DNA from: Psammoneis japonica
Taxonomy: Eukaryota
NCBI GenBank assembly: GCA_008632985.1
Contig: QPGO01000025.1
Location: 248,001 to 312,000, forward strand
DNA: 64,000 nt
Direction of reading: 5' to 3'
Position 1 is the first letter of the stretch. Each line of letters opens with the position of its first letter. The position numbers and the translations under genes are program-made. Under the pieces are notes generated by a model. It made no database searches. It was not told the DNA's origin and saw only the letters and a program-made list of their open reading frames with translations. Positions 1 through 64,000 of this stretch are shown here, piece after piece.

Positions 1-3000
1 GGATGTAAAGACAGAAAATCCAGGCTGACAAACTGACAAATGGTGGGGAGACTCATTGGAATTGAAAATGCAGAGTGTCTGCAATTTTGCCATCCACAAC
101 AACATTGGAGGGCTGCCCATGTTAAAGACCAGATGCAATGAGCACAACAAGCTTGAACAACAGATGACAAAGAGCAAGGTCAATGCCGTGGGCATCATTG
201 AAGCAAACCTTAACTTCAAGAGGACACCAAAAAACCAACAGTGCTGGAATGATTGATGGCATGCATTGTGAACCACAAATGAACACCACTCAATGTCTGG
301 AAAGAAACAATGCAGAGGAGCAGGACACTTCATCCAACAAACACCAAGTCATCACCTCACATCAAAAGGAAAAGATGACACAAGATTCAAAGGCAAGGAT
401 GGCATCCACACAAGGATGATGACAGCCTGTTGCCCTGTGCATGACAGGACAGCTCACCCAGGTGCAGTTTGCAGCCAACACTCTGCATGCATGCTTGCTG
501 TCAAAACAAGACCAGAGAGATCCAAGAACAGCATTCCTCAAAGATCTGAACTGTCAGATGAGACAATGGCAGGAACAAGGTGATCTGACAGCACTGGGAG
601 GAGTTGACATTGACGAAAACACTCAGAACATGGACATGCTGTCCTGGATGAGATCACTGCATCTGATTGATGCACCAATCATCCTCCATCCACAACCATC
701 AACTGTGGCAACCTGTGACAAAAATGGATCCGAAATCCCAACAGACGGAATCTTCATGTCACTGGCATTGGAGGTTCGATGAGGTGGAATGACAGGTTTT
801 GGAGAGGTGGATCATGCATCGGATCACAGATTGTCATGGACAGACATCAGAAAATCCAGTGTTTTTGGATGCACACCTCTGCCTCTGGCAACTGCAAAAC
901 CAGATGGACTTGCAGGCAAACTGAACAAGCCTGAGGTGGTGAAGAAATGCAATGACATCGTGTGCAAGATGATGATTTCTTGCAACCTTTTGAGCAGAGC
1001 AACAGCGCTGGAGAACTGCAACAAGTTTGGTCTGGAGGAACAGCTTGAGCATGAAAGCACATTTGAGGAGAACAGGAAGATGCAGCAGACAGCAAAGGAA
1101 AAATGCAGGAAATTGTTCATGAACTCAGCAGAATCTTCAAACAAGATCAACAAGGCAAGGAAGGAGATGCATCTGTGGAAATTGATCCACAGATTCCGAT
1201 TCAGATGCAGAGCACCTGTGAGAAAGATTTGATGATGGATGAGACATGCAGGGCAGATGGATGCCTTTCAAATCCCAGCTGAAGGAATTGAGACACAACA
1301 GAAAGCTGCTGTGAAGGAGCACAGGAGACTCAAGAAGCAGATGGATTCAAAGCTGTGACAAGATGAGTTTCAGTCTAGATGCGCAAAGACAGTGGAGAGA
1401 AACAAAACAATGGCGGAACACAAGGAGAAGCTCGTTGGCCATTCACATCATCAACAGAAGAGTTGCAAGCAGAAAAGCCCGTCATGCAATGTGAGCTGTC
1501 GCCAGGCCAGGCAGGTGAGGAGCAGACAAAGAACATTCTTCCAAACAAGGAGTTGAGAAGACATGCACAACAGAAGGCAGAAACAGATGCAGCCAGACCT
1601 TTGCTCCCGGGAGCACAGTGCTGTTCATGAAGTCACCTTTGCTGGATGACTTTGGATGTCTGGCAGATGCACTGGCTGCCAAGCAAGTGTTGCAAGGAAT
1701 GCATGTCCCACCGCCAGGTGCGGAAGAGTGGACAGCAAAATTCATTAAACAACTCAAACGTCCGGATCTGACACTTCCACAATTGGATGCGAGATGTTCC
1801 ATGGAAGAGCACATCCACAGCTGGAAAAAGATGAAAGGACACATGTCCAGCAGCCCCTTTGGACCAGCCTTCTCCAATTGCAAGGAAGGATGTCAACACC
1901 CAATGGCAGCAAAATTTGATTCCTGCATTTGATTCCTGCATGTCCGCCATCCCATGGAAACAGGGATGTGCACCAAAGTGCAGGTCCAAGGTGGCAGATG
2001 TGATGATCCCAAAGAAAGAAGAGTCATCGCATGTCAGAAAACTCCTGATCATTTTGTTTGATGCACAATGCAACAAAATGAACAAATGTTGCAGCAGAGC
2101 AACAGTGCATCAGGCCAAGGTGCACCGGGAAATGCCGTGGGAAGCACATGACAGCAGGAGACAACATCAAGCAATTGCATGCACTCTGAACAAGGTCTTG
2201 ACAGGAGACATGTTTGGACAACTGCACAGATCAGGAGCCACATGCAGCACAGATGCCAAATTGTGCTGTGGTCAAATCCTGCACTCAGTTGCCCTGCCAT
2301 GTGTGAGGCACATGAGCAATGTGTGACAAAGAAGATGACGACAACCTCTTTGTGACAGTGGCAACATTGAGTCAAATCACACACCACACACAAACCGCCT
2401 GTGGTGACTTGGAAGAATCATGCGGTGCCCTCAAAGTGCCACTCCAAGGGACATTCCAAGGACACAGAGCAGCTCTCCAGCAATCTGGCTGCCAGTCAGC
2501 ATCCCGGCAATGAACACGCTGAAGGAGGAAGGGCAAGGAATCTTTGCTGAGACTCCAATTGCCAAGCACACCTTTCACCACGTCTGCTGCACATTCGTTG
2601 ATGACACGGACCTGCCGCACTTGCCAAGGGAGCAGGATGCAACGACCCCAATGGTCATCAAGGGAATGCAACAAATGACAGACTGCTGGGAAGGCAGCAT
2701 CAGAGCAACAGGTGGAGCACCGGTGCTGTCAAAAAGCCATTGGTGTTTGTTGGTGTCCTTCAAATGGGAAAACAATCAATGGCAGCACCAGTCGGTCACA
2801 GAAACACCAAGAGATGTGTCAATTCTGGACCATGAAGGAAGTGTTCAATCATTTGATGACCAGAGGCATGGGAAGTGGAAGAAACTCTGGGAGCATGGGT
2901 GGCTCTGGACGGCACTGCAGAACAACAAGTGGCAGCACTTGGAGCAAAAGTGGAAAAATGGGCAGACCAAGTTTGGAGCAGACACTTGAACAGGACAGAA

Positions 3001-5760
3001 TTGTGGCTGTCTCTTCAAGGAGGCGTGATGCAAAGCACAAAGTGCCCACCAGCACTGTGCTCATTGACAAAGGAGGATTGTGACTCAATGCAGAAACCAC
3101 TGTTTGAAGTGGCTCTCCCGGCATTGGGACATCCCAGATCATTCCCAAGGAAAGTGCTCTTCGTTCCAAGAAAGTGCAATGGATTGGGAGCTCCAGAGAT
3201 CCATGTGTTGCAAGGACTGCTGAAATTAGAAGTGTGTTTGCAAGAGGGTGACTCATCTTCCATGACAGGACATGAGCTGGCAGTGATTCAGGAATTGCTG
3301 CAACTCAAGCTGTGTGCGTCACACCAAGTGTGCCAATCAGACCATGAAAACTGGCTCTGCTTGCCACCAAAACGTGGGTCAAGTCACTGTGGGAATTCTG
3401 CAGGAGCTGCGACACAGAGCTGGTCTCACCAGACCCAAGTGCACCACGACAGCAGGAGTGGGATGCATTCCTGATGGCAACCTTCGTGGATCACGGGTGC
3501 AAAGGTGAGAGACTCAGGAAGATCAATGTGCATGCAGAACGTGGATCAAGACACTCCGACTCTCCGACATTGTGTCAGGAGATGGACAAGACATTCTACA
3601 AGACTGGTGAACTGGAGCAACAGAGTGTGAAAGCGAATGTGATTGGCCAAAAGCGGGGTTCCCATCAGCCAAAAGCTGGCAATTATGGCAGGAAGCCTCA
3701 ACCGCATGTTGTCTGTCACCAGGCAGGAATGCACACCTCAGACTGCATCAACCTCTGGGCAAATGGATTTCAGACACAAGCCAGCTTGCCTGGAGACACT
3801 TGGAAAGCAATGATGGGGTCTGTCAATGGATGCCTGAAGGTGAGCACAGAGTGTGCTCCATTCTTCCACAAGCACATGGGAGATGGCAACAGTGCCACCA
3901 CTTCACGAGCACTGCGCAGGCAATTCCACAAGATGCTCTCCCAACAAAACAACTGGATCTGACAGCTGCATCCAACAAACGGGGACATCTGCAGTTCTCC
4001 CAATGACAGAACCAGCCTTCTGATGGCTCCTTTGAAGATGACACAGCAACAGTGGCAATGATGCTCCTCCCGTCTTTAGGACACTCATCCCATTGATGCC
4101 AAGGAGTGAACCAGACACCAGGCAAGAAACAAGAAATGACACCTCATGAGCACTGCACAGGTGATTCCACATGATGCTCTCCCAACAAAACAGCTGGATC
4201 TGACAGCCGCATCCAACAAATGGGGACATCTGCAGCTCTCCCAATGACAGAACCAGCCTTCTGATGGCTCCTTTGAAGATGACACAGCAACAGTGGCAAT
4301 GATGCTCCTCCCGTCTTTGGGACACTCATCCCATTGATGCCAAGGAGTGAACCAGACACCAGGCAAGAAACAAGAAATGGCACCTTGTGGGGCGGAGTCA
4401 GGTGGGATCTGCGGAGTGCTGCGACATTTGGCGGACCTCTGCAAATGGCACAACATCAGGAAAGGCAAGGTGGTTGTGGGGTGTGATTGTGACAATGGCC
4501 TGCGGATGTGCTTCTACAATGACTTTGACAATCCAAAACAATGGAACCATGACTTGATGCAACCCATGTGCAGAATGATCCGGATGCTGCCAATGCTTGC
4601 AGTGCCAGAGGAGGTGGATGGCTGCAAAGACAAGGAAGTGCCACTTCAGGAACTCACTTTGATGGAACACCAAACGTGGAGATGAGCCTCCCAGCAAAGG
4701 TGCGCTGGGAAGCACTTTACACAGAACCAGAGTTCAGATGCTGTGAAATGCCGGAACAACAATGTTGGCACATGCATCTGCACGGTGAAGTGCAAACTGC
4801 CTGGGATCATGGTCGAATGGTTGAACATGTCTGCGGGCCCCCGGCTGCACAATGCTGGACACACACCTCAGCTTGCCCAAAATGTGGGGAGCCGAAATGA
4901 ATGTTGAACATGTTCTTTGTTGCCCCACCTCATCTGCATTTGCACTGTGGACAAAAACAAAGACAGACGAACCAGACAAGTGGCTTGTAGAACAGGGCAC
5001 ACGACCAGCACCATGAGATGGCATCATGACCCATCTTGCAAACTGGCACAGGCAAGCGGTGTCCAACTCTGAAGGCATTGGAGATTCACAGATGAGAAAG
5101 CTCCTCAATGAACAGGAGAAACTGGGCATGAGCTCACTGGCAAAAGAGTTTGTCTCTACGAGATGGTCTGACATGTGCAACAAGCGCGCTGCGGACATTC
5201 GGGTCGGAGAAACACAGGACTGAGGTGGTGGCTCTCAGGATTCATGCAGCAATTGTGGCAGCAATTGTGGAACACATTTGGACATCACACTCGCACATCC
5301 AAACACTCTGACTTCAGAGTCAACACTTGCAGAGAATTCGCACTTGGACGGAAGAATCGAGGGGGAATGTGCCTGTCAGCTCAACAGGCCTCCGCTGCTC
5401 ACTTCCCTCACCTGACCAGGTGGTTCACCAGATCCTTGGAAAGTGCCCAAATAGAGGATGCGAACTGCAAGAAAAAATGGCTGCACACAGCACATGTGGC
5501 CAAGATTGCATTGAATCACCAAGCAGGTTGAAAACATCAACTGTTGCCACATCGGAGCCGCTCCACAACTGACTCCGAGGAATTGTGAAAGTGTGTTTGT
5601 TTGATGCTCTGCACCCATCATGGCTGTGGATTGCTTGGACAAGCAGGCGTGACTAAGCTTACCACAGGTGGCGGCCCAAATGTGGGTGTGTAATTTTTAG
5701 GATTGAATTACTGCATGTGGAGACAAACGAGACCTTTGGGCTGAACAAAAAAAAGAAAAG
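1..5760 (+). mobile_element. Degenerate non-LTR retrotransposon (Ambal-like architecture: APE endonuclease, RT, RNase H); 5' part runs off the window
   Basis: Fragmented + strand ORFs carry APE motifs (PTDGIFMS, SDHRLSWTDI), RT motifs (PAIWLPVSIP, CTFVDDTDL near 2590) and RNase H motifs (SDGSF, AESGGICG, VGCDCDNGL). A-rich tail near 5745-5765. Many stops and frameshifts; TpA/CpG depleted. Confidence 0.85.
3900..4385 (+). repeat. 241-bp tandem duplication inside the LINE
   Basis: About 3904-4144 is repeated at about 4145-4385 (gagcactgc...ggcaagaaacaagaaatg); differences are mostly at CG/TA/CA/TG sites. Confidence 0.95.
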
Positions 5761-5978: not shown

Positions 5979-8438
5979 ATGTCAGCAATGGCTGAAAGCG
6001 ATCAAAAGCTCCCCGAAGAACCTAAAGGAGAGGAGAAAAAGGAGGAGGAAGACGAAGAGCTGATGGACAAAGACAGCTGGCGTGAAGCACTTTGCGATAT
6101 GCTTGACAGCGTCGATCACAAGGGCGATTTTGCCGTCACGAAGCCCGTGTCTTTTCCATCAATGCATCCCATGCTCACTGTAGAAGGTATGAACGAGCGC
6201 ATTGCTTTCCCTTTGCTGGAAGTTCAAGCAAAGGAACTCCGAGGCACAGCAGAGAAGGCGCCGTACGGCAAAGGCAGTTCCACTATTTTGGACGAATCCG
6301 TTCGAAAAGCGTGGCAGATTGATGCATCCAAGGTGACCTTTCAGGAGGAGGAGGATTGGAAGCTGGCTCTCGCTGACATCACGGCTGACACGATCGCCTC
6401 CTTGGGTCTGTCTTCGAGCCAGCAGTCTCGTGTAGAAGCCAACCTGTACAAGATGCTTCTGTACGAGACTGGCGGACACTTTCAGAAGCACCGTGACACA
6501 GAAAAAGAGACCGGCATGTTTGGAACGCTGATTATTCATTTGCCTTGCACGTACACGGGCGGATCCTTGGTTCTTCAGCATCAGGGAGAAACTAAAACGG
6601 TGGACCTGGCACCAAAGGCGGCCAAAGGATTCTTTGCTACGGCTTTTTACGCCGACTGCGAACATCAGCTGCTTCCCGTCAAAAGCGGCTGGCGTCTCTG
6701 TCTCGTGTATAACCTTGTTATGCGACAGTCAGCAGCGGAAGCATTGCCAACTGCTCAGGAACTGACGGCACAGCTTCGAACGCTTCGAAAACTAGAAAAA
6801 CAGTGGCCTCAAGTCTCTTCCGAGAACATCCAAGGTTATTTACTCGAACACAAGTACACTACGACAAACCTCAAGTTTTCCAATCTGAAGGGACGTGACA
6901 AGGAGATGGCGGAAGTACTTCGTCAGGCCACGGATGCAGCTGGTAAACCTCTTTTTGTAACTAGCCTTGCTTTGCTGGAAAAGTGGGAGACCGGCAGCGC
7001 CGAGTCGTCCTACGGATATGGAGGAAGATACTACGACGATGATGATGACTACCACAGCTCTGGCGGTGGTCATCATACCATGGAAGAGGTCCACGATAGC
7101 TCAGTCAAATTCACCCACTGGGTAGGCCCCAACGACCGAGCTATTAATAACTGCAGTCTCGCTCCGAATCCTGACGAATCTCTCTTTTTGAACCTCGAAG
7201 ACTCTATTGAAGGGGAGTTTGGAGAAGATCCCGACAAGGAAGATTACGAAGGATACATGGGAAACTACGGTCCGACTCTTGAGTATTGGTACTACAAGAG
7301 TGCTCTTATGTTTTGGCCTCGGTCGTTGAATCCTCGAGTCGCTGCTTCTGGCGGGATTTCTTTCATGTGCGCCAGTCTCCTCACGGCTCCCCAGGACGAA
7401 GCCAAAGAATATGCAATGGCTGCTGCTCAGCAGCTTGAACGCGATCATTCCAGCAAGGTAACTCCAGAGTTGTTGGAGGGCATGCTGCGAGCTGGTGATC
7501 TGGGACTCGTGGAACGAGTGCTGACTCGGACCAGTCCACTCGATGGACGTGAGTTAGGAAAGGCGCTTGTGACTGTCGTGCACGGTATGCCATTGACTGC
7601 GGGGGCAGTGATGGGTGTTGTGCAACGAACTTGCAACTCCAACAAATACTACTCGCCCATTGGCGTGAGCGAATTCCAACAGATGCTGGAGCTGTTTGAC
7701 CGGAAGGACTTGGCTGCGTCGGTTAGACGATACGCCGTGGAAGGGTCGATTGAAAAGTGGAAGATGCTTCTTTCCCGCCAGGAAGATATCTCAGCGGTCG
7801 TTGGCATGGCATATCGCTGCCCTGATCTCCTGGAATCGTTCGTCACCACTGCGTTGCAACACGCCTCTCCAAGCCAACTGCGTACGTGCGTGGCGCTTCT
7901 AATGTCCAAGGAGGGAGCAGCGCAGAACACTCAGGTACGGAGACTCTACCAAAAGCGGGCGGAACAGCTCCATGAGGCAACGCGATATGGGAAGCCCGCT
8001 TTCACGTGGCGTCAGCCCCATGCCAACTTCCCGGGGAGTCATGCCTCTGCCGTCAATTCGTTTCTGCGAGGCAATGAGCAGACCCGAACCTTCCATGACT
8101 TTAATGGAATTGGACATGCTCGTAACTGGGCCAACAAGTACTTTGGAGGCTACGGGCAAGGTTCTGGGTACAGTGCCCGAGCGATGCCTGGAGGTCGCGG
8201 ACAGAACGCTTTCGTCGAAGTAATCAAGACGAAATCGAATCACACGGCGCAGTTGCACCAGTATGATGAGGATGTGAAGGAGCTCAAGCGTCTTTCAAAC
8301 TTTTTCTCCATTCCTCTGGGCAATGTTGTGGTGTCCGATTCGAAACGTTCGGCATCCATCAATGCCGACAGTGTTGCCAGCGCACCGAAGAAAAGTCGTT
8401 CAGAGGGTGATAAGGAGAATCCTATCCAGATCGGTTGA
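5979..8438 (+). CDS. 2OG-Fe(II) oxygenase superfamily protein (prolyl-4-hydroxylase-like DSBH domain) with long C-terminal extension
   Basis: Intact 819-aa ORF; LYKMLLYETGGHFQKHRDTEK (HxD), FYADCEHQLLPVKSGWRLCLVYNL (distal H and R). Confidence 0.85.
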   Translation: MSAMAESDQKLPEEPKGEEKKEEEDEELMDKDSWREALCDMLDSVDHKGDFAVTKPVSFPSMHPMLTVEGMNERIAFPLLEVQAKELRGTAEKAPYGKGSSTILDESVRKAWQIDASKVTFQEEEDWKLALADITADTIASLGLSSSQQSRVEANLYKMLLYETGGHFQKHRDTEKETGMFGTLIIHLPCTYTGGSLVLQHQGETKTVDLAPKAAKGFFATAFYADCEHQLLPVKSGWRLCLVYNLVMRQSAAEALPTAQELTAQLRTLRKLEKQWPQVSSENIQGYLLEHKYTTTNLKFSNLKGRDKEMAEVLRQATDAAGKPLFVTSLALLEKWETGSAESSYGYGGRYYDDDDDYHSSGGGHHTMEEVHDSSVKFTHWVGPNDRAINNCSLAPNPDESLFLNLEDSIEGEFGEDPDKEDYEGYMGNYGPTLEYWYYKSALMFWPRSLNPRVAASGGISFMCASLLTAPQDEAKEYAMAAAQQLERDHSSKVTPELLEGMLRAGDLGLVERVLTRTSPLDGRELGKALVTVVHGMPLTAGAVMGVVQRTCNSNKYYSPIGVSEFQQMLELFDRKDLAASVRRYAVEGSIEKWKMLLSRQEDISAVVGMAYRCPDLLESFVTTALQHASPSQLRTCVALLMSKEGAAQNTQVRRLYQKRAEQLHEATRYGKPAFTWRQPHANFPGSHASAVNSFLRGNEQTRTFHDFNGIGHARNWANKYFGGYGQGSGYSARAMPGGRGQNAFVEVIKTKSNHTAQLHQYDEDVKELKRLSNFFSIPLGNVVVSDSKRSASINADSVASAPKKSRSEGDKENPIQIG

Positions 8439-18442: not shown

Positions 18443-20599
18443 ATGTCGAACTTACGAAAGCTTCAGAGTGAGTTTGAGCTATAGGTTAGAGTTTCGTTTG
18501 TGTTTATGGAGTATTCTGTGGCCTCATGCTATTTTTGTTGATTTTCAGCCGAGATTGATCGGGTTATGAAAAAGGTGGATGAGGGGGTTGAGCTGTTTGA
18601 TGAGATATGGGAGAAGGTGTATTCGGCAGAGCAGCAAAATCAAAAGGAGAAGTTTGAGATGGATCTGAAGAAGGAAATCAAAAAGCTTCAGCGACTGAGA
18701 GATCAGATAAAGACATGGATCGGGAGTAACGATGTCAAGGACAAGGACAATCTGATTGAAGCACGCAAGTTGATTGAGACCAAGATGGAGCAGTTTAAGA
18801 TTTGTGAAAAGGAAACCAAAACAAAAACTTACTCAAAGGAGGGATTGGCGCGCCAGGAGAAGCTTGATCCAGCCGAGGAAGCTAAACAGAAGACTACAAA
18901 GTGGCTTGCAGAGTACATTGAAAAGTTTAGCTCGCTTGTAGAGGACCATGAAGTAGAGATTGAAAGGTTGTCTGCTGGCAAGGGGAAGAAGACGAACAAG
19001 CACGAGATCGAGGAGTTCAACGACTACATCACCAACCATAAGTATCATATCAACAAGCTAGAGGGCATCATGCGTCTCGTGAACAATGATCGACTTGACG
19101 TTGAGCCGGTTGACAATCTTAAGGAAGATCTCGACTACTACTTGGAGGCTTACGAAGACGAGGACTATATTCAATCCTACGACGAAGAGTACTTTTACGA
19201 GAGCTTGGGCTTGGAGGAACTTGCTGTAGTAAACGTCGATCGGGTGACGCAACGGAACGCAGCAGGGCGTTCTTCCAGTTCTGCATCGATGGATGATGAG
19301 TCCATGTCTTCGTCCAAGACTGGCGGAAAGGAAAAATCGTCAAAGAAGAAGGCTTCCTCAAACGTTATTCCCTTGACGATTGGGAGAGCACGAGCTACTA
19401 GCTCCGGAGAGCCAAAGCCTTCAACACCTAGTAAGATTGGACGTGGGTCGTCGATTCCCGCTGCTCAAACCAACAACAGCAACCACAGCGGAGTTGGGCT
19501 CGGTCCGGCACCCAAACCAGCACCGCCCGTGCAAACTGGTGGGGCAAGTATGGCATCGATTCTTAAGCGTGAAAGTGATCAACAAGAAAAGGAAAGACAA
19601 AAGGCGCTTCAGCAGCAGCAGGTAAGTCGCACGGACTTTTTCTGGTTGCGTTGCAATATTGTACGTTGCCGGTTCCTTACGTGCTGTTCTCTGTGTTGAT
19701 ACCAGCTACTCCGTGAACAACAGGCACGTGCTCAGCAAGAGCAGCTTCGACAACAGCAGTTGCTTCGACAGCAACAGGAGCAGGCACAACAACAATTGCG
19801 TCAGCAGGAAGCTCTTCGCCAACAACAACAGCAGCAACAGCAAAAGGCGGCTGCTCAGCAAGAGGCGCTCAAGCGTCAGCAGATTCAGTTGCAAGAGCAG
19901 CAGGCCCAACAACAGCGTGCACAGCAAGAAGCGGCTGTAAAGCAACAGCAGCAGCTTCAGGCGCAGCAGCAAGCGGAACAAAGCAAGCTGGCCCAGCAAC
20001 GAGCGGCGAGTGGAGGAGGAAGTGGCGTCGGTCTCGACATTCTCAGTTCTGGCCTTGGTGGTCTTAGCCTCGGCGTAGAACAACGTCAATCTGATGGTCT
20101 CTCCTCCCCAATGCCATCGGTTGCAGCAGTATCCCCTCAACCTACCCAGCCGTCGTCCTCTGTGGATTCAAGTGCATACTTGTCTGCGTTGAACGAATCT
20201 TATGCTCACATTCCGTCTGGCAGCGATAGCGAGAGACAGCGGACTTACACCCCGAAAAATCCCTACCCTACCCCGAACTCATATCCTTCTGCACCTTTGC
20301 CTCTCTTTGAAAATGCGGCTGTCTTTGAAAAGCTTGGAACAGACTGTCTATTTTTCATCTTTTACTACTCCCAGGGCACCTACCAGCAGTACTTGGCCGC
20401 ACGCGAGCTCAAGAAGCAGAGCTGGAGGTACCATAAGAAGTACATGACGTGGTTCCAGAGGCATGAAGAACCCAAGGTGACAACGGATGAGTACGAGGAG
20501 GGATCCTATCTCTTTTTTGACTTTGAAGCGGGTTGGTGTCAACGTATCAAACACGACTTTAGGTTTGAGTACCGGTTCTTGGAAGATTCGTTGGCTTGA
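18443..20599 (+). CDS. NOT3: CCR4-NOT complex subunit NOT3/NOT5, 3 exons (18443-18467, 18549-19621, 19706-20599)
   Basis: MSNLRKLQTEIDRVMKKVDEG..., LKKEIKKLQRLRDQIKTW; NOT-box LFFIFYYSQGTYQQYLAARELKKQSWRYH; both GT-AG introns restore the frame. Confidence 0.95.
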
Positions 20600-43900: not shown

Positions 43901-45931
43901 AGTCTTCTGGTTCATCTTGCACATGTCAACCACACAAGCAACAAGGGCATCACATTCCTTGGCAAAAGATGGGTCATCCACCTGGAGCTCTTGGATGGAT
44001 TCATCAAGAAGCTTGTTCAAGTCTGGGAGGATTAAAGGGTGTGCAAAGCATTTTCCATTGATCAGTCCTGACTGGAGCAGAGATGGTGTTTTGCAACAAA
44101 TTTGCAAGCAGCTCGGTGCCCGCGTCCTTGTTGGTGTCAGCAATGTCAACAGCATTGACAGCAATGTGCGGGCATTGTGTGTGTTGTCCAGATGGTGTTC
44201 TCAATTGCGGCAGCATGGGTTGCAAACTCGAGTGGACTGGTTCTCCGAGCAAGTCGGGCTGTTGGCCTGGCTCAAGAATGCACTGAGTGTCTCAACAACA
44301 TGTTGCTCAGCATGCTTGTGTGAGAGAGCTGGAGAGTCGCGCTTGTTCCCAGCAACCCCAGCAAGGAACTTGGAGCACTTTGCATTCTTGGTGAAAACAG
44401 CCATCTTGTGAGGGTCATCCAATGATGAGTCTGCATCAAAGACACAGGCACGCAGTTGCAAAAAATCCTTGAAGAGAACAAAGCAATCATTTGCCGCAAG
44501 GTTTCCTTGTTTGGAATGACAGTCCACAAGACCAGCAGCGTCTTTGCAAAATGCAGGGTGCACCTGGAACAGCATCTGTTTCAAGGCCTTGCAGCCATTG
44601 CCACAACACAATGCAACAATGCAGTGGAGGCAGCTGTTCTTGGGGAACACATCAGCATGGCACAGAAGCTTGAAGAGGGCATGCAAAGATGCCATGCAAT
44701 GGACCTGCACGTGCTGCGGGAGGTCATCCAAAGGTCCATTCCCAACAGCGAACCTCCGTTCCCCACCGTGTTGGCGCTTGAAGGTCCACAGAGGGTGCAC
44801 ATGACACCCACAATCAGTGGCATGTCAGTGAAAATTGGTGCACCACCAGCGCATGCCATGTGGGCTGTCGTCATGGCACAAAGTTGGTTCCCGGAGCAGA
44901 GTTTCGAGATCCAGATGAGTCTCCATGATGAAGAGCAATCCATTGGCAAGGATGAGGCAGTCTGCACCATCGAGATGACAAGTGTGACCAGCAGAGTGCG
45001 GTTTGAGGGAATTCTGAAGAATGACTCCTGCATCAGAGGCCTTTTGATCAAAGCAATCACACACATCCTTGGGTGGAGCATCCAGATTGAATGGATGTTT
45101 TGATGCCAAGGATGTGGTGGCAGATGCAGCTGCACCACCAGATCCTGTTTTGGGGGGTGCAACAGACATGGCACAGTTGTCATTCAGAGCATCGACCAGA
45201 TCCTCATGTCCACTGATCTGGCAGCAGTCGATGTCATGGGAGGTGGCATGGGAGCATGCGTTGGAGGGTGCACAGCATCAGAGAGATTTGCTCCAATCCT
45301 TGTGAGAATGTTGCATGACAGGGGAGAAGTCAAGGCATGTGATGCCAACACTGACAATGACATGTCATTGTCAAGCTTGAAGGGCGCCCTGAATTTTATG
45401 ACCCAACATCTGTCTTGAGAGACAGGACAATTTTGGATCATTCTGGGGAAAATCCACCTTGAGGGGAGCCTTGTTAAAAAGCAATCTGACCATTGATTCT
45501 TGAGCTGGGTCAAGAGTTTCTGGCAAGATGAGCTCCGTGAGGATGTGCTTGCAGAGCAAGTCAATGACATTTTCCGTGGATTGCGCATGGCTTGGATCAT
45601 CAAAAAATTGATCCAGATCAATGACGACACCACTGTAAAGGTTGTTGAAGAATGAAGCAACCCTGTGGTGTTGTCTCTGCATGGCAAGAACACCACGAAG
45701 ATCTCATTGATGGAGTCACAAGTCTGTTTCTTGGGGGCAGTTTTTGCCATGGTTGATGAGGTGCGCAAAAATTTTTGGTCATGCACACGTAGAAACCTGG
45801 CGCACTTCTGTGGAGACCGTGTGCTGATGAGAAAGTTGGACTCAGGATCAAAAATGGCAGCCAACTTGTTCAGCTCACAGACCAAACAAATCGAAACAGG
45901 GTTTTTGTTGCAGAGGAACACATGACCCAAC

Positions 45932-45943
45932 AAGGCCATAACC
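45932..45943 (-). promoter_or_regulatory. Primer binding site GGTTATGGCC (copia-type, half initiator tRNA-Met)
   Basis: Immediately inside the 5' LTR; resembles the Drosophila copia PBS GGTTATGGGCCC. Confidence 0.75.
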
Positions 45944-46135
45944 TGTCAGAACACCGATGGCAAGAGTGACAAGCTAAAGAGCTCCCTGCAAACCAGCAAC
46001 AGTGGACAACACATGTGCCAGTGAGAAAGAGTGAGAGAAGATCTCAGAGAGATCATCCATCTCGTCCATCTAAAAAGAGTCTGACTGTCATCCGCACACA
46101 GTCTGACCATGCATCCTGCACAGGGCGAGCTGACA
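45944..46135 (-). repeat. 5' LTR
   Basis: Direct repeat of 40778-40965. Confidence 0.92.
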
Positions 46136-46140
46136 GTTCC

Positions 46141-47395
46141 TGCACTTGCCTCCGCTGCTGCTCTTTCTGCCTCCTCCCTGGCCACTCCAGTCAAGTCAGC
46201 CACTCTTCCTGGCCTGATCCACCATCTCTGCCATGAGCATCAGCAGCAGCTTGTTGCATCCACCCTTGCTGATGCTCCCTCTGATGCACAAGTTTCCCTG
46301 CCCTTGCTGCTGTCTCCACTTGCTGGCCTCCCTCTTCATTCCTTCTCCTGATGTTTCTGGAGCTCCTGCCTTGCTTCCGATGCCTGCATCATTGCCACTC
46401 AACATGAGCTCCATCTTCCCATTTTTCCTGCCTCTCTTGTCAACATGCCCTGTTCCTGCGGCCTCGCCACCCCCGATGCCCGTGGCGATCACACCTTCTC
46501 TTGCTGCCATGCTCACAAATCCAAGCTGTCCAATGGCCTCCATGACACCCCCTCTTCATTGCAGCCCAAACCTTGGGACCCCTTGCCTGGCTCTGTCATT
46601 CTTCCAATGATGTTCACCTTGAGCCTGCAAACATGCTTCCTGCCCGTCCAGCCAATGTTGGCATTTCCATTCCTCCTCCTGCCTCCCTCTCTGCTCCTTC
46701 CTGCCAACACTGCATTGCAGCTTTGATGTCACTGCACCCCAAGCTCCCTCTTGCCCTCCTCCTGGTTTGCCTGCCCCTCTTCCCCTGTTTCAACTGAGGC
46801 ACACCATGTGAGTGTGAGACTGAAGTTTCTTGGCCCTTGCAGTTCCTCTGCTGATGGATCCCCAGTTGTTGCTTCACTCAACAACAATGGCATGTTCCTT
46901 CTCCCTTTTGCTGTCAACCACCTTGGTGGCCTTGGATTCTTTGCTCACTGCTTTCTTTTTGGCTCCACATTTTCCTCCATCTGCTCTCTCAACTCAAACC
47001 TCCCTGGTCCTCCTCTTCCAATCTTTGCCACTCTGATGCTTCCTGCTCTGCCTTTCTCTGTGCCCTGTCCTCTCCGTCTGCTCTCCTCCCATCAGCTGAC
47101 TTTGCGTGGTGCCGCCTGTCCTCTGATTGCTTTGGCAGCACTCATCACACTGCCTCTCCTTCCCAATGGGCCATTCAAGCTCTCAGCTGCAACATTGTTC
47201 TTCACCTCTCCATGCACGCCCTCCCATTCGCTTCCTCTCTCCCCACCCCTTCACCCCCCATTCCGTCAGCCAAACACCCTGCATCCAGTGTTTTCCATCC
47301 ACTCTGCTCCACCATCACTGCAGCTGCCTCTGTGCTTTCCTCTGCTGTTCCCTTCTGCTCTGCACAGGCTCTTTAACTCTGCATTTTAAAAAAGG
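46141..47395 (+). mobile_element. CRE-like non-LTR retrotransposon, 3' part (Zn knuckle, restriction-like endonuclease)
   Basis: PCSCGLATPDARGDHTFSCCHAHKSKLSNGLHD and RPANVGI (RPAD-like); same strand bias as 39650-40777; short A-run at about 47387. Confidence 0.7.
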
Positions 47396-47772
47396 GATGG
47401 GTTTCGGACTGGGGTTGGAGAGTTGGGGTTGCAGTTTGGCGGAGTGTCGGGTCAGTTGGTCAGAGAGTGATTTGGCAATTGCAAGGCTCAGGCTTTGAAG
47501 GCCCCATTGTGATGGAGCAGAAGTGTGGTGGGTCAGGCCAAAGTGTGTGGTGGATGTGTTCTGCCAAGCGGCAGCAGCAGCAGGGAGAGAGATGCTGGGT
47601 CTGGAGTGTAGCATGTAAGCCATCCTCACGCGTTGGACATGGTTGTTTTCTTGTGACCCGCCTTTTTTCCTGCGCGCGATCGATGAACACCGACCCTCTG
47701 CTGACGCACTATTATATGCTCCTTCACGTACGTAGAAATCTACACGCTCTCGTCGTTGCATTATCCGTCATA

Positions 47773-49322
47773 CTACAAATTGCTAAACACTTGGCAAAAA
47801 CGCGCGTAAACCGCCTTCGTTCGCTTCTGAAGGGAAAATTTCCATTCGTTGCGATTTTGTACCAGAGCCACGTAGAAATTTACAGCGCTACGTCTTGCTG
47901 CTTTCCGACTCCCGCCTCCGACCTCCGACGAAGACACGGTGAAGCACGAGGATGTATCCGACAATGGCGGTGCCCATTGTCATCGATTCTGCCAATTTTC
48001 ACACTCTCCCGTGTTTCATTTAACTCTAAACATTAATGAAAGAGAGCTTTGGTGCTTTGCATTTTTTCCATTGGCGGCTTCACTCACATTTGTTCTCCGT
48101 CTGCACCATTTTGATGTCCCAGCTGGCGTGACGCGGAGTTTTTGCTTCTATTCAGGAGCATTGCGGCTTAAGTTGTCGTTCATCAACCAACACTGGTGAA
48201 ATTCGTTCGATCATTGAATGCCTGGTGTTGCTGTGTGCACATTTGAGGCAATGGGAGGGCAAGAAATGGCTCGTGCAAGAGCGCATGACGCATCATGTTG
48301 CTTGACAGATGCAACAGATGGCAGAGTTGGATGTGATTAATGAAGAGGTTGAATTTATGGTGCACAAGAGGGCAAACATCAACTTCTCTCTGTTGGCGGA
48401 GGGAGTGACTCGCTTGCAGCCAATTTTAGATCAGATCCCGCGCTGCTCCAGGTTGTTTGTTCAACACTGCTCTAGATTCAATGCTGCTCTCTAGAGGTTG
48501 TTTGTTCAATGCCACTCTAGACAAGACACTGCTCTGGGTTCTTTGTTCAACACTGCTCTAGATTCGACACTTGTCCAGGTTCTTTGTTCAACACCACTCT
48601 GCCAGATTCGACGCTGCTCTGGCATCAATGCAGTCGGATCATGCAGCAGCATTGTTGATTCTAGATTGTCTGTTTTTTTTCTACATCACTGGTGTCCATC
48701 CCAATGAAGATCCACACACAATGGCACAGTGCAAATGCCGTCTCCTCTTTGGGCTTGGTCGGTCTACGAGACCAGGGCTTTCCTCCGGGTGCGCGACATG
48801 GTGCGCCATTCCTCTTGCAGTTTTCAAACTCCTGGACCGAAGCTTGCCATTTGTCAAGCTTCTCCTCATTCCTCTCTGCAATGTCTCGATTTTTGTTTGG
48901 CTCATCCACAGAAAAATGCCCACATCTAATGCATTGACGGTGCCCCTCGTCGTCCGGTGGGCATCCGCCGACCAGAAACTTCCTGTCGCGCTCTTCGGCA
49001 CACCGCACCACAACTCGGTTCCCTCAGCTCGTCGAGTGTTTTGTCCCTCGTGGGACCATCTGCATCGTCATGCTCAACAGCATCATGTGGAGTTTCGGCG
49101 TTTGATTCCCGTGCACGGACACGGTTGTGCACAGCGTTTGTTTGCCATGGTTGAAGAGTGCGAGCGGTGTCATCTGTGTTGTTTCCAAAAAATCAACGCG
49201 CGGGAAGATTGTGCACTTTTCTACGTAGGCTGGTACAATCGAGCAACGAAGAGAAATTTTCCCTTCAGAGGCGAACGAAGGAGCTTTACGCGCGTTTTTG
49301 CCAAGTGTTTAGCAATTTGTAG
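47773..49322. mobile_element. Non-autonomous DNA transposon with about 110-bp imperfect TIRs, flanked by TA
   Basis: TA|CTACAAATTGCTAAACACTTGGCAAAAACGCGCGTAAA at 47771 and its reverse complement ending at 49324; internal ~30-bp sub-repeats (ttgttcaacactgctctaga) at 48450-48620. Confidence 0.85.
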
Positions 49323-49424
49323 TATCCTCCACATTTTTTTTATTTCTCTCTTGTTGGCTTGCTGTTGGTCGTCGCTGTCTTCTTGTTCGTGTTGTCCAAG
49401 CTTGACCACTGTGCTTTTATCACC

Positions 49425-58693: not shown

Positions 58694-58933
58694 TCTGATG
58701 TTATCTCTTTGGAGCACAACAGCGACAGCAACAGCGACACAAAACAATGCGACGACCTCGGAGCGGACCTACGGTATCAGTGCAATGCCGCGCAGACGGA
58801 AAACAAACCTTTCCGTTGAATCCCATCTTCTACCTTTAATAATATATGTAAATAGATACGTATGTGTCGGATGTCAATTCAGTGTACTGTACAGTACTGG
58901 CAGTATTCGTACAAAGTATGAACGTTTACAGTA

Positions 58934-61030
58934 CTACGAATTCGGAAACAATTGCGCGTTTTCCAGCGCGAAGGTCGAATATCGCGCCTGAAGCGACGAT
59001 CGGCGCTTCGCGCAAAACTCATGTAGAAATACGTAGAAAACATACTAGAGCTAGAACTCCAGAACGGAGAAAAAACATCTGAATGGTGCGCGTATCATCA
59101 CAATGATGTTGTTGTGTCCCTTCTCCCTTCGTGAGCGTTTCTCACTACCATGCCACCCACAAAGAGATGAAATCGTTGTATTCCTGCTCAAGCACCTGGA
59201 GATACAGAGACTCATCCGTCTAGTGGTGGCACTAGAGGCTATTCCCAGGCTCAACTTTTTTCCGGAGAGGTTTCTGGAGATGACGCCCGCGCCGACCCAT
59301 ACTCGGCCTTGTTTGAGCTATTCTTGATCGTTTTCGTTCATTGAAGACATGGCTATTACTTTTAGGAGGTATAATTGATAGGTGAGGCCCTTGCTTTGGT
59401 GAGAAACGGAGTTGTCGTTGTATAGAAATCAAAAAATGGGTCTTTTCCATTTTTGGGCGGCAAAACCCATACTTTGATGTTATTTCGTTCAATACACTTC
59501 CTCTGTTGCCTCCCATTGCTGTTATCTCTTTATCACAGATACGAAAAGTATCTCCTGTCTTGGGTATGCTGTGTGTATGATCTGTGGCGAGAAATATTGC
59601 TCACATTCGTGTGGTCTCGCATCGGCATTTTGAGACTACCACCGACCCATACTTTGATGTTTATTCGTTGATTTCGTCGCTTTACTCACACTTCTTTTAT
59701 CGAATCTTTACTTTATAGTTGTGGGAGCATCGCTCTGTCTTGATTTTGCTGTGGGTGCGAGCTGTGGCAAGAAATATTCATCGATAAAACCAACTGCGAC
59801 ATGTGCCGACGCCTTCTCCTCGCTTTCCGAGAATGCGCTTTTCCCGTTAGTCTAGTCTGTTGGATACTACTGCTAATAGAATCATAAAATAGAATGGTGA
59901 CACTAAACAAATTCTTCTATTATCTGAAGCTAGTATTCCCCCATTTTCATTGGTAGCATCAAGCTCCTCGGCTGTTCGTGTATCCGAGAGTCGAGTGCTG
60001 ACTCGAATCCTCATGTTTTACAATGTCAGCGCGTTCACTAGAAATTCATGAGTGGAGGAATTACAGGACGAATCGTTTGATGTGTTGCCAGTACTTTCGA
60101 CTTCGATATTGTCGATAGGAATTCGATTATCTTCGTCAGCATTTGTCGGTGCGACATCAGTGCTTTTCCGTCTGTGGACGCGTCAACCATACTGTAACCT
60201 CTGCCTGGCATTTCTTGTTGGATTTATTGTGCTCCCAAGACAGAAGGATGCCCCCACAACTATAAAGTAAAGATTCGATAAAAGAAGTGTGAGTAAAGAG
60301 ACGAAATGAACGAATAAACATCAAAGTATGGGTCGGTGTTAGTCTCAAAACGCCGGTGCGAGACCACACGTGTGCGACCGATATTACTCGCCACAGATCA
60401 TACACACAGCATACCCAAGACAGGAGATGCTTTTCGTATCTGTGATAAAGAGATAACAGCAATGGGAGGCAACAGAGGAAGTGTATTGAACGAAATAACA
60501 TCAAAGCATGGGTCGTGACCATTCCTGATTATCCGGTCAATCCAGTCAATGTGACAGTGCCTTGTTTCTCACCACAGATCGAATACACAGCATGCCCAAG
60601 ACAGTGAGTACCTTTCGTATCTATAATAGAGAGACACCAGCAATGGCAGGCAACAGAGGAGGTGTCTTTAACGAATAAAGATCAAAGCATGGGTTTTGCC
60701 GCTCAAAATTGGAAAACACCCATTTTTTGATTTCAACACAACGACAACTCCATTTTTCGCCAAACCAAGGGCTTACCTAACAATCAGACCTCCTAAAAGT
60801 AATATCCATGTCTTCAATGAACGAAAACGATCAAGAATAGCTCAAACAAGGCCGAGTGTGGATCGGCGCTGCGCCATGTCAAAAAAAAATCCACGCCCCA
60901 GGAAAAAGTCTCTCTCTGGTATGTTTTCTACGCAATTCTACACCAATCTTGCGCGAAGCTCCGATCGTTGCTTCGGGATGAAAATTTGAGCTTCGCGCAA
61001 GAAAACGCGCAATTGTTTCCGAATTCGTAG
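58934..61030. mobile_element. Non-autonomous foldback-like DNA transposon with TIRs, TA flanks and long internal inverted arms
   Basis: TA|CTACGAATTCGGAAACAATTGCGCGTTTTC at 58932 and its reverse complement ending at 61032; about 59300-59730 is inverted at about 60250-60860. Confidence 0.88.
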
Positions 61031-61128
61031 TACCTACAATTAATACAAAGACACTTAGACGCCTACCGTGATATCTAATAATCGCGCACGTATCATATAA
61101 TCAATCCAGGCCGGCGTGACGCCCATAA

Positions 61129-61185
61129 TATAGGCGCCGGCGCCTATAATAATATAGGCTCCAGCGCCTATATTATAGGCGCTGG
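61129..61185. repeat. Two adjacent palindromes
   Basis: TATAGGCGCCGGCGCCTATA (61129-61148) and CCAGCGCCTATA-T-TATAGGCGCTGG (61161-61185). Confidence 0.9.
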
Positions 61186-61814
61186 CTGGCTCGATAGTGC
61201 GAGTGCGGTACGGCCGTCATACACGTAAACATTCGGGCACGACACTGTGCTGTATGAGGCTACGACTAGCACAATGTGCAATATAGAACATTCAGAAACA
61301 TATATTTTGTATGTGAATATATATTTTATGTCTGGATGATCTGTATGTAAAATGACTGCACATGACTCCTGGTGTAGAATTTGTACCAGTCTACGTACTT
61401 AAAAGCTCTACGAACTGCAGTATAATAAAAACGTCCGACTTTAAGTAAAATAAAATGTCGGTCCGCCCAAATCGACCGAAACGCCGGCCATGTCTTTTAA
61501 CAAAACATTTGAACTTGAATATTTTATATGAAGCAGTCGGAGTTGAAAAAGTAATATCAAAATTTTTGTAGTGATTTGAATAGGAAACATTGTCAAAATC
61601 TTTTAATTATTTTTGAAAGTATCGATTTTTGAGAAGAAAATTGTATGGGTTACATCTGTAAAGATGCCCTAATTATTTGCCATAAACCGTTATCGTTAAA
61701 TAGCCATGTACAAAAATTGCAATACCGGTGTTCGGGACGTTTTTTACAGTTCACATTGTGCTAGTCGTCACTCCATAACATCTTCCGGAATCTTGCGGAA
61801 TGCGAAAATAAGGT

Positions 61815-64000
61815 GGATCCTCGCCGCTTCCCAGCCTTTCTCTGACCCTGCTCATCTCACTCCTCAGTGGCAGCGTGATTCCACACCCTTTTGGAAGATG
61901 CTGCCACTCTTCAAGGCTCTCATTCTTTTGCTCCTGTGTTCCTCTGCCCGTGCTCTAAATTTGGCCCTCCTGCAACAGCCTCTCGTCTGGCTCTCTCGTT
62001 CTCCGCCGGCGTTGATGCATCTGTCAACTTTGCAAATGTGCCTGCTCTCTCACGCCACACTCCTCTTCTTCTGGCTCCTCTCCAAACTTCTCTGCTTCCA
62101 CCTGTTGTTGCTCTGCCCAAGTCTGTGCTGATGAGGACAACTTCCGCTCAGCCTGCTCCAAACTCCAAACTGGCCTCCACACTCCCAGCTGCCGCTGTCA
62201 CTCCCAAGTGCCTCCCTGAGACATCCTCAAGCTCTGCCCTCCCCGCTCACACCCTTCCGACACACCCGATGCTCCCTCAACTTGCTCAGCCTCTTCTCTT
62301 GACAATGAGCCCATTGAGCTCTCTGCTGGTGCTCTTCTCTCTGCCCTTTCCAACAAGTGCAAACCCGCGCTGATGCTGTCGGAGAGTGTTTGCCAGTTCT
62401 CCACCAATCTTTTCAAGTCCTGCACTTTCTGCTCCACCAAAACTCCCACTGGTCATTCTCAACACCCCTGCTTGCCTTTTTTCTGGGAGCTCATCCTTCT
62501 TCTCCTTCGCTGCTCTCTGTCCCTCCCTCCCCATCCACTGCGCCAAAATCCATTGAATCGGCAAGCTTTTTGTGACAAACGGCAGTTGACATTTTTGATG
62601 GCATGCACATCAAAACCTCCTCTGCTGTAAAATGGCAGAAGCTTCCATTGTGATTCTGGCTGTTTTGAGGAACCCAGACGTCCTTGTCCAACTCAAAAAT
62701 TTGCAGCAAAGCCCAAAGTTCGTCCTTTGTTGGCCTTGTCTCCTGTTCCGCTCTGTCGTCGCATTGCAATGCATCAATTGTTGTGTCATGGTTTTTTGGA
62801 ATTAGACAACCAGACATTGCTCCTTCTTCATCTAAGTCCAGCAAGGCTGAATCCAGCTCAGCACACATGATTGCCAGACCAAAGCAACGACATGCTTTTG
62901 CAAGGTGCTGGATGCCAAGCAAAAGCAGGAATGTGACAGACCACGTTGACAATGAGTCTTCATTGTTTTGCACTGCATTCAGCACACTCTTGCCCATGCC
63001 AAGCTGCATCTGATGACTTTGAAGATGCAAATCCAGACCCTTCCACACCTGCTTTGCACGCATGCACTCTTTGACCGCAGAGATGACATGGCGGCCCTTT
63101 TCTTTCGTGGCAAGCTCCGCCCAGAAACTTTGTGCCTCCTCCCTGTGATGGGATTGCGCTGAACCATGCTTGTTTCAATGCATGTGGCGCACCAAGGCAA
63201 TGACACATGCAATGTCTGCAATGCAGCAGACGTCATCCATCATGCACGCTTCGCTCCTTTGGTGGTTGCAAGCAACTCGATTGTTTCTTTGCCATTGCTG
63301 TGTCTTCAAGCCTCTGCACTCCACTTCTTGTTTGCAGAAAGGCTGGCACAAAACCTGCAGAAAAAATCTGGCGTGGGCTCCTTTTCACAAAATGATGGAC
63401 ATGACTGAATGTGAATGACCTTGATGGAATTCCCAGCTCATCTGACAATCGTGTTGTCATCATGGCTGTCATGCTTCTCCGCTCCTGAACAACAGTGGTG
63501 TTGCGTCCTGTGTCACTCATTGCCGCACATTGGAAACCATCTGCCTCAACATGTCATCATCAGAAAGAACACAAATGATGTCATCAGTGTGACATCAGGG
63601 TTCTCACGCCATCAAATGCCACTCCATTGGAGATTTGACACCCAGACCTGTTTTGGTGCATGCCTTCATGTCTGTAGAATGCACTGAAATGTCAATGGTC
63701 CAAATCAAATCATGTTTGACATCTCAAAAGTGTTCCCCCATTTTGGTTCCTTGCCAATCAGAGAAACGAGGTGCGACATGTGTCATTTTAACAAACAAAC
63801 ATGCTTCAATGATCACACCCAAAACTTGCACCTCATCTTCCAAACAAACCATTGGTGCTCACCCCCCCCATGGAACAAGCAGACTCTCTCTGCTTTCCAT
63901 TGATGCATCACATGTGGGGCTGTTGTTTGCACAAAATTTCAAGTTGTCATCAATGTTCAACATCGCGGCAGATGCACATGTGTTGGATGTCAATTCACTG
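61815..64000. mobile_element. Degenerate TpA-depleted TE DNA (pyrimidine-rich LINE-like piece followed by an unassigned coding relic)
   Basis: Abrupt loss of TpA; Tyr-free broken ORFs; no diagnostic motif recognised. Confidence 0.5.

Follow-up and report, generated by a model that had tools for sequence, protein, structure and literature searches.

Near-complete loss of TpA from transposon remnants in a 64-kb stretch of the genome of the diatom Psammoneis japonica

Introduction

A 64-kb stretch of the Psammoneis japonica genome (GenBank assembly GCA_008632985.1, contig QPGO01000025.1, positions 248,001 to 312,000 of the forward strand; hereafter the window, GC ~49%) holds remnants of mobile DNA that have almost no TpA dinucleotides, while the adjacent genes are normal. 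Were these remnants rewritten where they lie, in which direction and by what kind of process, or did they arrive with this composition? The first-pass annotation, which was made from the letters of the window, had proposed hypermutation of TpA to TpG or CpA by a host process targeted to repeats, most simply adenine deamination, and had stated that no established pathway was known for it.

That last statement is outdated. A literature search on TpA loss or repeat-induced point mutation (RIP)-like mutation in diatoms and other algae found one relevant paper, a preprint describing TpA-specific hypermutation, exclusively A:T>G:C, of integrated nucleocytoplasmic large DNA virus (NCLDV) and virophage DNA in the chlorarachniophyte Bigelowiella natans (Mettrop et al., bioRxiv April 2026, 10.64898/2026.01.13.699255). 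According to its main text, 231 of the 302 nuclear point mutations in 15 mutation-accumulation lines fell into two integrated viral regions, and all but one of them (230) were A>G or T>C changes at TpA, arising at ~6 × 10−7 per site per generation, roughly 1000 times the background, in some lines only. It also lists 324 TpA-depleted genes, enriched in reverse transcriptase (RT) and DDE domains, and its authors propose, without proof, an ADAT2-like adenine deaminase. The main text of the preprint gives no sequence context past the dinucleotide and does not mention diatoms. For diatom transposons, the literature search returned no account of TpA loss. In a term search of an earlier study of diatom retrotransposons (Maumus et al. 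2009, PMC2806351), 'RIP', 'dinucleotide', 'point mutation', 'C to T' and 'deamination' were not found, and the single occurrence of 'transitions' referred to nutrient regimes.

Results

TpA and CpG are depleted together in four blocks

In a 1-kb profile of the window, the observed/expected ratio (o/e) of TpA was 0.00 to 0.11 over the stretches that the first-pass annotation had assigned to transposable elements (TEs) and mostly 0.45 to 0.75 elsewhere, with three bins straddling block edges at 0.16 to 0.21. The o/e of TG and CA was 1.5 to 2.2 over the TE stretches versus about 1.0 to 1.3 elsewhere. Segmentation on TpA density called four TpA-erased blocks (Table 1, where the expected counts are computed block by block from base composition), the boundaries of which fell within a few hundred bases of the annotated ones.

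The four blocks pooled (26,702 bp) were compared with the rest of the window (37,298 bp), and this revealed o/e values of 0.05 versus 0.59 for TA, 0.28 versus 0.97 for CG, 1.72 versus 1.15 for CA and 1.79 versus 1.15 for TG. The twelve other dinucleotides, AA, TT, AC and AG included, shifted little between blocks and rest, and ApT was not depleted (AT o/e 0.93 versus 0.89), as had been claimed. The blocks contain 81 TpA where the frequency outside them would predict ~1070. Measured as o/e, 95% of TpA is gone, a ~20-fold depletion; the effect is too large for chance. The signature is absent from the adjacent genes (TA o/e about 0.6 in host genes), in agreement with the earlier description of nearly TpA-free, TG/CA-rich TE stretches beside normal genes. 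Compared with the per-base rates outside them, the blocks are short of 989 TA and 990 CG (1979 together) and carry a surplus of 1131 CA and 877 TG (2008 together), and this mass balance closes within 2%. A trinucleotide mass balance for splitting TA>TG from TA>CA was dropped, its outcome being too sensitive to the assumed ancestral composition.

The coding consequences were also as first described. Six-frame translations of the blocks are nearly free of Tyr (0.07% versus 2.25% in the rest) and rich in Cys (5.9% versus 3.7%) and His (5.2% versus 3.2%). TAA and TAG occur 80 and 44 times in the blocks, versus 613 and 700 times in the rest; with these stops nearly absent, the blocks are packed with long open reading frames (ORFs) in all frames, with 133 stop-to-stop ORFs of at least 90 amino acids in 26.7 kb versus 110 in the 37.3 kb elsewhere. 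The sliding-window comparison of TpA and CpG that the first-pass annotation had suggested for the whole genome was run within the window, where both dinucleotides are low in the blocks; the annotation had underplayed this co-located CpG loss and had missed a preference for certain flanking bases, reported below.

Table 1. Features of the TpA-erased blocks and of the elements in and around them (obs., observed; exp., expected)
Feature	Position	Strand	Remarks
TpA-erased block 1	1-5541		TA 14 obs., 335 exp.; CG 87 obs., 338 exp.; truncated by left window end; long ORFs numerous in every frame; tandem duplication of 241 bp (3899-4380)
Satellite, ~500-bp unit	23740-26679		Enters block 2; TRF period 499, 5.2 copies
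TpA-erased block 2	26437-29670		TA 13 obs., 213 exp.; CG 47 obs., 191 exp.; perfect (AGTG)37 microsatellite at block start (26678-26827); single N of the window at 28582
Tandem pair, ~530-bp unit	29146-30184		Straddles right edge of block 2
310-aa ORF in unaffected island between blocks 2 and 3	30459-31391	minus	
TpA-erased block 3	31628-47466		TA 48 obs., 968 exp.; CG 294 obs., 1012 exp.
RT-like ORF, candidate non-LTR element	39457-40050	plus	Pfam RVT_1, E = 0.23
Ty1/Copia long terminal repeat (LTR) retrotransposon remnant	40776-46136	minus	In block 3
Candidate LTRs of the Copia remnant	40776-40966 and 45942-46136		Direct repeats
Polyprotein remnants of the Copia element	41124-44065	minus	tblastn of 150 listed homologues
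Element bounded by inverted repeats	47770-49325		96-nt repeats, 91% complementary; partial TpA loss
TpA-erased block 4	61913-64000		TA 6 obs., 132 exp.; CG 47 obs., 120 exp.; sharp left edge at about 61.8 kb; truncated by right window end

Block edges cut through tandem repeats

Two tandem repeats cross the edges of block 2. In the tandem pair, one copy (29146-29607) lies inside the block and the other (29678-30184) at its edge. The edge copy reads TA where the inner copy reads CA (7 sites) or TG (4 sites), 11 in total, against a single site of the reverse kind; likewise, CG is kept in the edge copy and changed in the inner copy at 6 sites, and the reverse was found at 0. At another 5 sites one copy has TG and its partner CA, and such double differences indicate independent mutation of one ancestral step in each copy.

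The satellite, listed among the affected classes by the first-pass annotation, loses TpA as it enters block 2, the counts per unit running 19, 21, 16, 17, 13 and then 4, while the CpG counts of the same units, in the same order, are 30, 29, 30, 27, 32 and 25. Relative to the unit consensus, transitions occurred in 12 to 13% of site-copies at TpA versus 3.4% for A>G and T>C changes elsewhere, which bears out the expected enrichment of A>G in TpA context, and the excess is present even in the outer units. The edges of the blocks are 100 to 300 bp wide. Differences between adjacent copies of one and the same tandem repeat cannot come from the element's own polymerase, RNA editing before integration or an imported base composition. 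These data indicated that the change happened in place, at the DNA level and according to position, and they confirmed the earlier argument that it is not a property of one element's polymerase.

Conserved codons give the direction of change

Block 3 is a nest of several degraded elements, among which a Ty1/Copia remnant allowed a comparison with homologues. A phmmer search with ORF 41232-42218 (minus strand) against 1.84 billion representative proteins gave 298 matches at E ≤ 1 × 10−3, and 150 of them were listed. The long matches tested contained SH3_retrovirus and RVT_2 in eight of eight cases and gag_pre-integrs in six of eight, which identifies them as Ty1/Copia polyproteins. Up to 150 homologues were used to define 389 conserved columns, in each of which at least 8 homologues aligned and at least 60% shared one residue.

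None of the 19 conserved Tyr columns is kept in the window. They now read Cys (8, as TGY), His (6, as CAY) and, once each, Trp, Gln, Ser, Val and Phe. Conserved Arg is kept in 9 of 34 columns, the lost ones having become Cys (9), His (4), Gln (2), Trp (1), a stop (1) or others (8), so that 17 of the 25 Arg changes lead to Cys, His, Gln, Trp or a stop. Other conserved residues were mostly retained: Leu 40 of 49, Gly 32 of 44, Pro 31 of 37, Asp 20 of 23, His 18 of 20 and Cys 10 of 10. A single base change suffices for 79 of the 119 replaced columns, and these comprise 24 TA>TG/CA, 25 CG>TG/CA, 11 other transitions and 19 transversions when columns with several possible paths are given with priority to the TA and CG classes. 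TG or CA at conserved Tyr and Arg codons means that the ancestor had TA and CG there.

Both TA>TG and TA>CA thus occur, as stated earlier, in the Copia codons as well as in the tandem pair, and both strands are affected. The Cys and His outcomes alternate along the remnant within tens of bases, forming 9 runs (counted by hand) versus ~7.9 expected in a standard runs test; this lack of clustering indicates that the two strands were hit in an interleaved fashion. The two candidate LTRs align over 195 columns with 183 identities, 8 mismatches and 4 gaps, and 7 of the 8 mismatches (in 191 aligned positions) lie on pyrimidine-purine (YpR) steps and 1 lies off them.

A flank rule separates TpA loss from CpG loss

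Survival of TA in the blocks depends on the flanking bases (R, purine; Y, pyrimidine). It is 0.009 in RTAY, 0.057 in one-sided (mixed) flanks and 0.242 in YTAR, with TTAA as the best surviving context (0.54). CG, by comparison, survives at 0.34, 0.32 and 0.31 in the matching flank classes, that is, without a flank rule. The territories also differ in places: CpG persists without TpA at 26.4-26.6 kb and 31.7-31.9 kb, and at 29.7-30.1 kb the state is reversed, with CpG gone while TpA persists. The flank dependence of TA loss and the flank independence of CG loss indicate two separate processes, and TpA loss is thus distinct from CpG loss. For the latter, the loss of CpG with gain of TpG and CpA in the blocks, together with the changes of Arg to Cys, His, Gln and Trp at conserved columns, are the products expected from deamination of 5-methylcytosine (5mC), and we infer that it reflects ordinary decay of methylated DNA.

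Copia relatives outside the window

Tyr makes up <0.5% of 11 of the 150 listed Copia homologues, the median of the others being 4.3%. In the conserved Tyr columns of these eleven proteins (74 residues), Cys was found 40 times, His 18 times and Tyr once, and the outcomes differ between proteins. Four of the eleven Tyr-poor proteins were aligned and used to scan metagenomes, which yielded 80 loci; an earlier scan with another alignment had found no relatives. Most of the 80 loci have a TpA o/e of 0.55 to 0.9 and retain Tyr at a fraction of 0.5 to 0.74 of the query-Tyr positions, with Cys and His together at 0.03 to 0.1. As most related loci are TpA-normal and keep their Tyr, this TE lineage is not TpA-free by nature.

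A subset of the loci (L060, L054, L076, L050, L063/L066, L053, L070, L027, L041 and L077; L066 is the L063 locus from a second data set) shows Cys and His at 0.3 to 0.58, locally low TpA (0.13 to 0.4) and only mild CpG loss. In five partly depleted metagenome stretches, TA survival follows the same order of flanks, with 0.07 in RTAY, 0.36 in one-sided and 0.69 in YTAR. A purine precedes the conserved Tyr codon in 77 of 92 His-converted and 72 of 102 Cys-converted cases versus 469 of 984 retained ones (Fisher p = 1 × 10−11 and 1 × 10−5, respectively, against retained); in the window the corresponding counts are 6 of 7 for His and 3 of 8 for Cys. At L053:1-3500 and L063:3500-10500, Copia-like elements with a TpA o/e of 0.17 to 0.39 and mild CpG loss lie beside TpA-normal DNA (0.5 to 0.95), and these two loci resemble what intermediate stages of the same process might look like.

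Read support for the erased sequence

Contigs from three coded runs (X1, X2 and X3) of one public sample and one study were compared with the window over 28600-48599, of which X2 and X3 cover little or nothing. Seven X1 contigs of 730 to 2880 nt match block 3 with 0 differing letters at a word depth of 33 to 40. Exact 31-letter words at such depth require accurate reads, which makes base-calling errors at modified bases unlikely. At a likeness of at least 80%, 1352 X1 contigs were found. The paralogous ones differ from the window by 444 A>G, 428 G>A, 456 C>T and 470 T>C, and by 53 to 69 of each transversion type; this preponderance of transitions indicates that the block families have independently mutated paralogues. 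At the element bounded by inverted repeats, summed word depth exceeds 1000 over 47276-48599, which marks it as highly repeated.

A 6.4-kb X2 contig matches 33678-34361 in block 3 at about 85% and has loose ends on both sides that are unlike the window and contain several TA, which suggests a related segment in TpA-normal surroundings elsewhere in the sample.

Other features of the window

Ty1/Copia is the only element firmly identified in the blocks. At E ≤ 0.01, Pfam scans of 21 long block ORFs gave one match, attributable to chance, and the ORFs of block 1 matched no family. Among 130 block ORFs scanned at E ≤ 1, the only plausible matches were SH3_retrovirus (2.5 × 10−4 and 0.019) and RVT_1 (0.23). 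No meaningful match emerged from PDB sequence searches with five ORFs (three of the blocks, two of the host), and a word-index homologue search with the Copia ORF, restricted to longer proteins, gave none. Concerning the element classes named by the first-pass annotation, one Ty1/Copia element is therefore firm, whereas the 'Ambal-like' and 'CRE-like' long interspersed nuclear elements were not confirmed; the RT-like ORF with the RVT_1 match had no PDB match and no homologue in the word-index search. Of the 'two Copia elements', one was confirmed, and the one hint of a second is an integrase-like remnant with the weaker SH3_retrovirus match (E = 0.019); tblastn of 150 Copia homologues at E ≤ 0.01 detected no second Copia element outside 41-46.2 kb.

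TA is back to the right of block 1 from about 5600, as seen in the edge profile. The unaffected island between blocks 2 and 3 spans ~2 kb, with TA o/e of 0.74 and 0.51 and CG of about 1.0, and its 310-amino-acid ORF has no Pfam family and no PDB relative. Contigs of X1 and X2 span this ORF with 4 to 5 differences, which may be allelic. At 47-49 kb, around the element with inverted repeats, TA o/e is 0.25 to 0.39. A nested inverted-repeat structure at 58931-61033 (arms of 108 to 278 nt, 83 to 94% complementary) has a TpA o/e of 0.58 to 0.97 and normal CpG; it escaped the TpA-erasing process. A GC-rich palindromic 24-bp tandem adjoins it at 61125-61186.

The host genes are ordinary by Pfam, including Not3/Not5, a mitochondrial carrier, a PTEN-like phosphatase, an AAA ATPase and others. 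The closest relatives of the Not3 domain are diatom-type, with a best match of 82% identity and 63 to 65% for Cylindrotheca and Conticribra. At 18542-20599 (plus strand), an ORF with the Not3 N-terminal domain (to 19699) and one with the NOT2/3/5 C-terminal domain (from 19700) share a frame with one stop between them; relatives of 606 to 659 amino acids hold both domains, and the stop is probably part of a short intron. Adjoining block 1, 5979-8438 (plus strand) encodes an 819-amino-acid protein with one 2-oxoglutarate (2OG)-Fe(II) oxygenase domain (PF13640, 2OG-FeII_Oxy_3, residues 161 to 246), with no PDB relative at E ≤ 0.01 and no further Pfam family at E ≤ 0.001. No evidence ties it to the hypermutation, and it is of note only because oxidases are a candidate chemistry.

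Discussion

In this window, TpA underwent a directional A:T>G:C change on both strands that is positional, sharp-edged, flank-dependent and separate from CpG loss. As TpA is self-complementary, T>C on one strand is indistinguishable from A>G on the other. We propose that blocks of dead mobile DNA were hypermutated in place at the DNA level, nearly every TpA becoming TpG or CpA by an A:T>G:C transition at either position of the step, i.e. A>G on either strand, with alternating purine-pyrimidine sites (RTAY) preferred over YTAR. A separate second process would have removed about 70% of CpG from the same blocks, and the two jointly would have driven the self-complementary YpR steps TpA and CpG into TG/CA, leaving GC at about 50%. 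By analogy with B. natans, the process may be host-directed and aimed at silenced mobile DNA, and its chemistry may be deamination of adenine to hypoxanthine by an enzyme with a deaminase fold, TadA/ADAT-like or other. We lean toward such a host process, with adenine deamination as the likeliest chemistry, and hold it to be probable with clear reservations. Of the similar proposal in the first-pass annotation, the directional effect acting in place on whole domains stands, and the deamination chemistry and repetition as the trigger are tentative.

Could the same outcome arise passively? Mutation or repair bias in heterochromatin, such as error-prone replication or biased mismatch repair at the flexible TpA step, might act for a long time on old silenced DNA with no dedicated enzyme. 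The blocks are also CpG-depleted, like old methylated DNA, and TpA loss is graded, with o/e of 0.03 to 0.1 in old remnants, 0.25 to 0.39 in the element at 47.8-49.3 kb and a mild effect in the satellite. Nevertheless, almost all TpA and all conserved Tyr codons of the Copia remnant were lost, yet its LTR pair differs at only 8 of 191 positions, and neither the strict flank rule nor edges that stay sharp within 100 to 300 bp, even inside a tandem array, would be expected. The B. natans signature, moreover, arose far above background and in some lines only (Mettrop et al.). A passive bias is thus possible but fits poorly, and we consider it unlikely.

A different chemistry under the same targeting is also conceivable, in which a TET/JBP-type dioxygenase would oxidize thymine at TpA to 5-hydroxymethyluracil (5hmU) or 5-formyluracil, which mispairs with G and gives T>C. 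The counts cannot separate T>C from A>G at the self-complementary TpA, RTAY, the preferred context, is symmetric between the strands, and base J/5hmU in kinetoplastid telomere repeats as well as 5hmU in dinoflagellates favor T before A. However, 5hmU:A pairs are mostly non-mutagenic, no TET/JBP gene was seen in the window, where the only 2OG oxygenase matches 2OG-FeII_Oxy_3 alone at E ≤ 0.001, and the authors of the B. natans preprint favor a deaminase (Mettrop et al.). We regard thymine oxidation as rather improbable.

Two further explanations are largely excluded. Editing before integration, by an ADAR-like A-to-I activity on double-stranded TE transcripts and fixation by reverse transcription, would suit the fact that at least one affected element is a retrotransposon, and ADARs prefer U before the edited A; to our knowledge, however, ADARs are known only from animals, retro-copying cannot make a satellite and a tandem pair change state by position at a block edge, on the sense strand conversions to Cys and to His alternate over tens of bases, and the favored 3′ neighbor is a pyrimidine rather than G, all of which makes this route very improbable. 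Least credible is that misassembly or miscalling of modified bases produced the pattern, or that the elements are TpA-free by nature: although the runs come from one sample with no platform on record, the exact X1 contigs need accurate reads, a column-wise consensus of strand-specific miscalls would not favor TG and CA over TA and CG, Cys or His stands in place of conserved Tyr, and related elements elsewhere have normal TpA.

Several observations weigh against a host process aimed at silenced mobile DNA, or against parts of its evidence. The satellite, affected where it enters block 2, is only mildly so over 23.7-26.2 kb, which limits its earlier listing as an affected class, and TpA is normal in the inverted-repeat structure at 58.9-61.0 kb; as some repeats in the window were spared, the data do not show a repeat-induced process, and the trigger is not simply repetition within the window. 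The LTR mismatches include one TG-versus-CA double difference, one TA-versus-CA difference and 4 of CG type, and most TG/CA sites agree between the two LTRs, so part of the TpA loss of the Copia element may predate its insertion, or the LTRs may have been homogenized. Transitions among the X1 paralogous contigs are balanced both ways, with no sign of a less-mutated master copy. The sample of the runs may be the source of the assembly itself, and the exact match of the X1 contigs to the blocks, a read check that the first-pass annotation had proposed, is in that respect not an independent confirmation. Finally, the patterns of the metagenome scan held mutated, Tyr-poor forms, which biases the mutated share among the 80 loci upward.

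If a host process acting on silenced mobile DNA is nonetheless at work, its reach could be wider. Diatoms and chlorarachniophytes, and possibly much of the SAR (stramenopiles, alveolates and Rhizaria) supergroup, might share an enzymatic defense that recognizes silenced mobile or viral DNA and rewrites duplex TpA, with RTAY preferred, an idea we put forward tentatively and rate as somewhat short of an even chance. Such a system would erase Tyr codons, TAA/TAG stops and TATA-like signals from its targets, would represent a second, independently evolved 'RIP' of opposite polarity, and would imply a DNA adenine deaminase or thymine oxidase that is a potential natural base editor for TA context.

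For practical purposes, the preference of RTAY over YTAR is a flank rule that any candidate enzyme must reproduce, and together with the diatom case it makes the hunt for the enzyme practical. Gene finders will call false genes in the blocks, where long ORFs stem from the scarcity of TAA and TAG. As block proteins escape Pfam, TE content is under-called in such genomes; Pfam-based TE masking will miss the blocks, and divergence-based TE ages will be wrong.

Among known systems, very-short-patch repair, with CTAG scarcity, in Escherichia coli is a bias of repair by which words containing TA are converted in the course of evolution to the corresponding TG/CA words; unlike the process here, it affects the whole genome, depends on one methylase site, is slow and is not directed at mobile DNA. 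ADAR/APOBEC editing of animal retroelements is alike in leaving deaminase-type transition clusters that disable mobile elements, but its substrates are RNA or reverse-transcription intermediates prior to integration, and each event affects a single strand, whereas here non-retro repeats were hit in place and with the strands interleaved. Deamination of 5mC in methylated transposons would explain the CpG>TpG/CpA part of the block signature; it cannot remove TpA, and the edges of CpG loss are not exactly those of TpA loss, in keeping with the earlier argument that CpG decay does not explain the pattern. Fungal RIP shares the transition hypermutation that destroys mobile DNA in place, the dinucleotide context and the sharp domains. 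RIP is further characterized by a duplication trigger, premeiotic timing and an enzyme of the RID/DIM-2 type. Its change, C>T in CpA, enriches TpA, whereas TpA is depleted 20-fold and CpA enriched here, the opposite polarity noted by the first-pass annotation, and some repeats are spared here.

The closest match is B. natans as described in the main text of Mettrop et al. In both organisms A:T>G:C transitions at TpA give both TpG and CpA, with TpA depletion coupled to the gain of CpA and TpG, the changes are concentrated at TpA, and they are confined to foreign or mobile DNA with normal neighboring genes and flanks; the enrichment of RT and DDE genes among the TpA-depleted genes of B. natans is a further likeness. 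The host here is a stramenopile rather than a rhizarian, and the targets are transposon remnants, no viral gene having been identified in the blocks, rather than viral DNA. TpA loss is near saturation here (o/e 0.05 versus 0.45 for their NCLDV region), it is co-located with strong CpG loss, which their main text does not report, and the RTAY>YTAR flank rule is seen here. Whereas restriction to TpA is absolute in B. natans and its rate was measured directly, the diatom evidence comes from sequence, with CpG decay and background changes overlaid. The signature is thereby shown outside the one species reported before and extended to retrotransposons, with a diatom case near saturation and partly mutated Copia copies in metagenome contigs. 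On this comparison, the blocks of P. japonica would be the second known instance of a recently described signature, and apparently the first found for diatoms and for retrotransposons at saturation.

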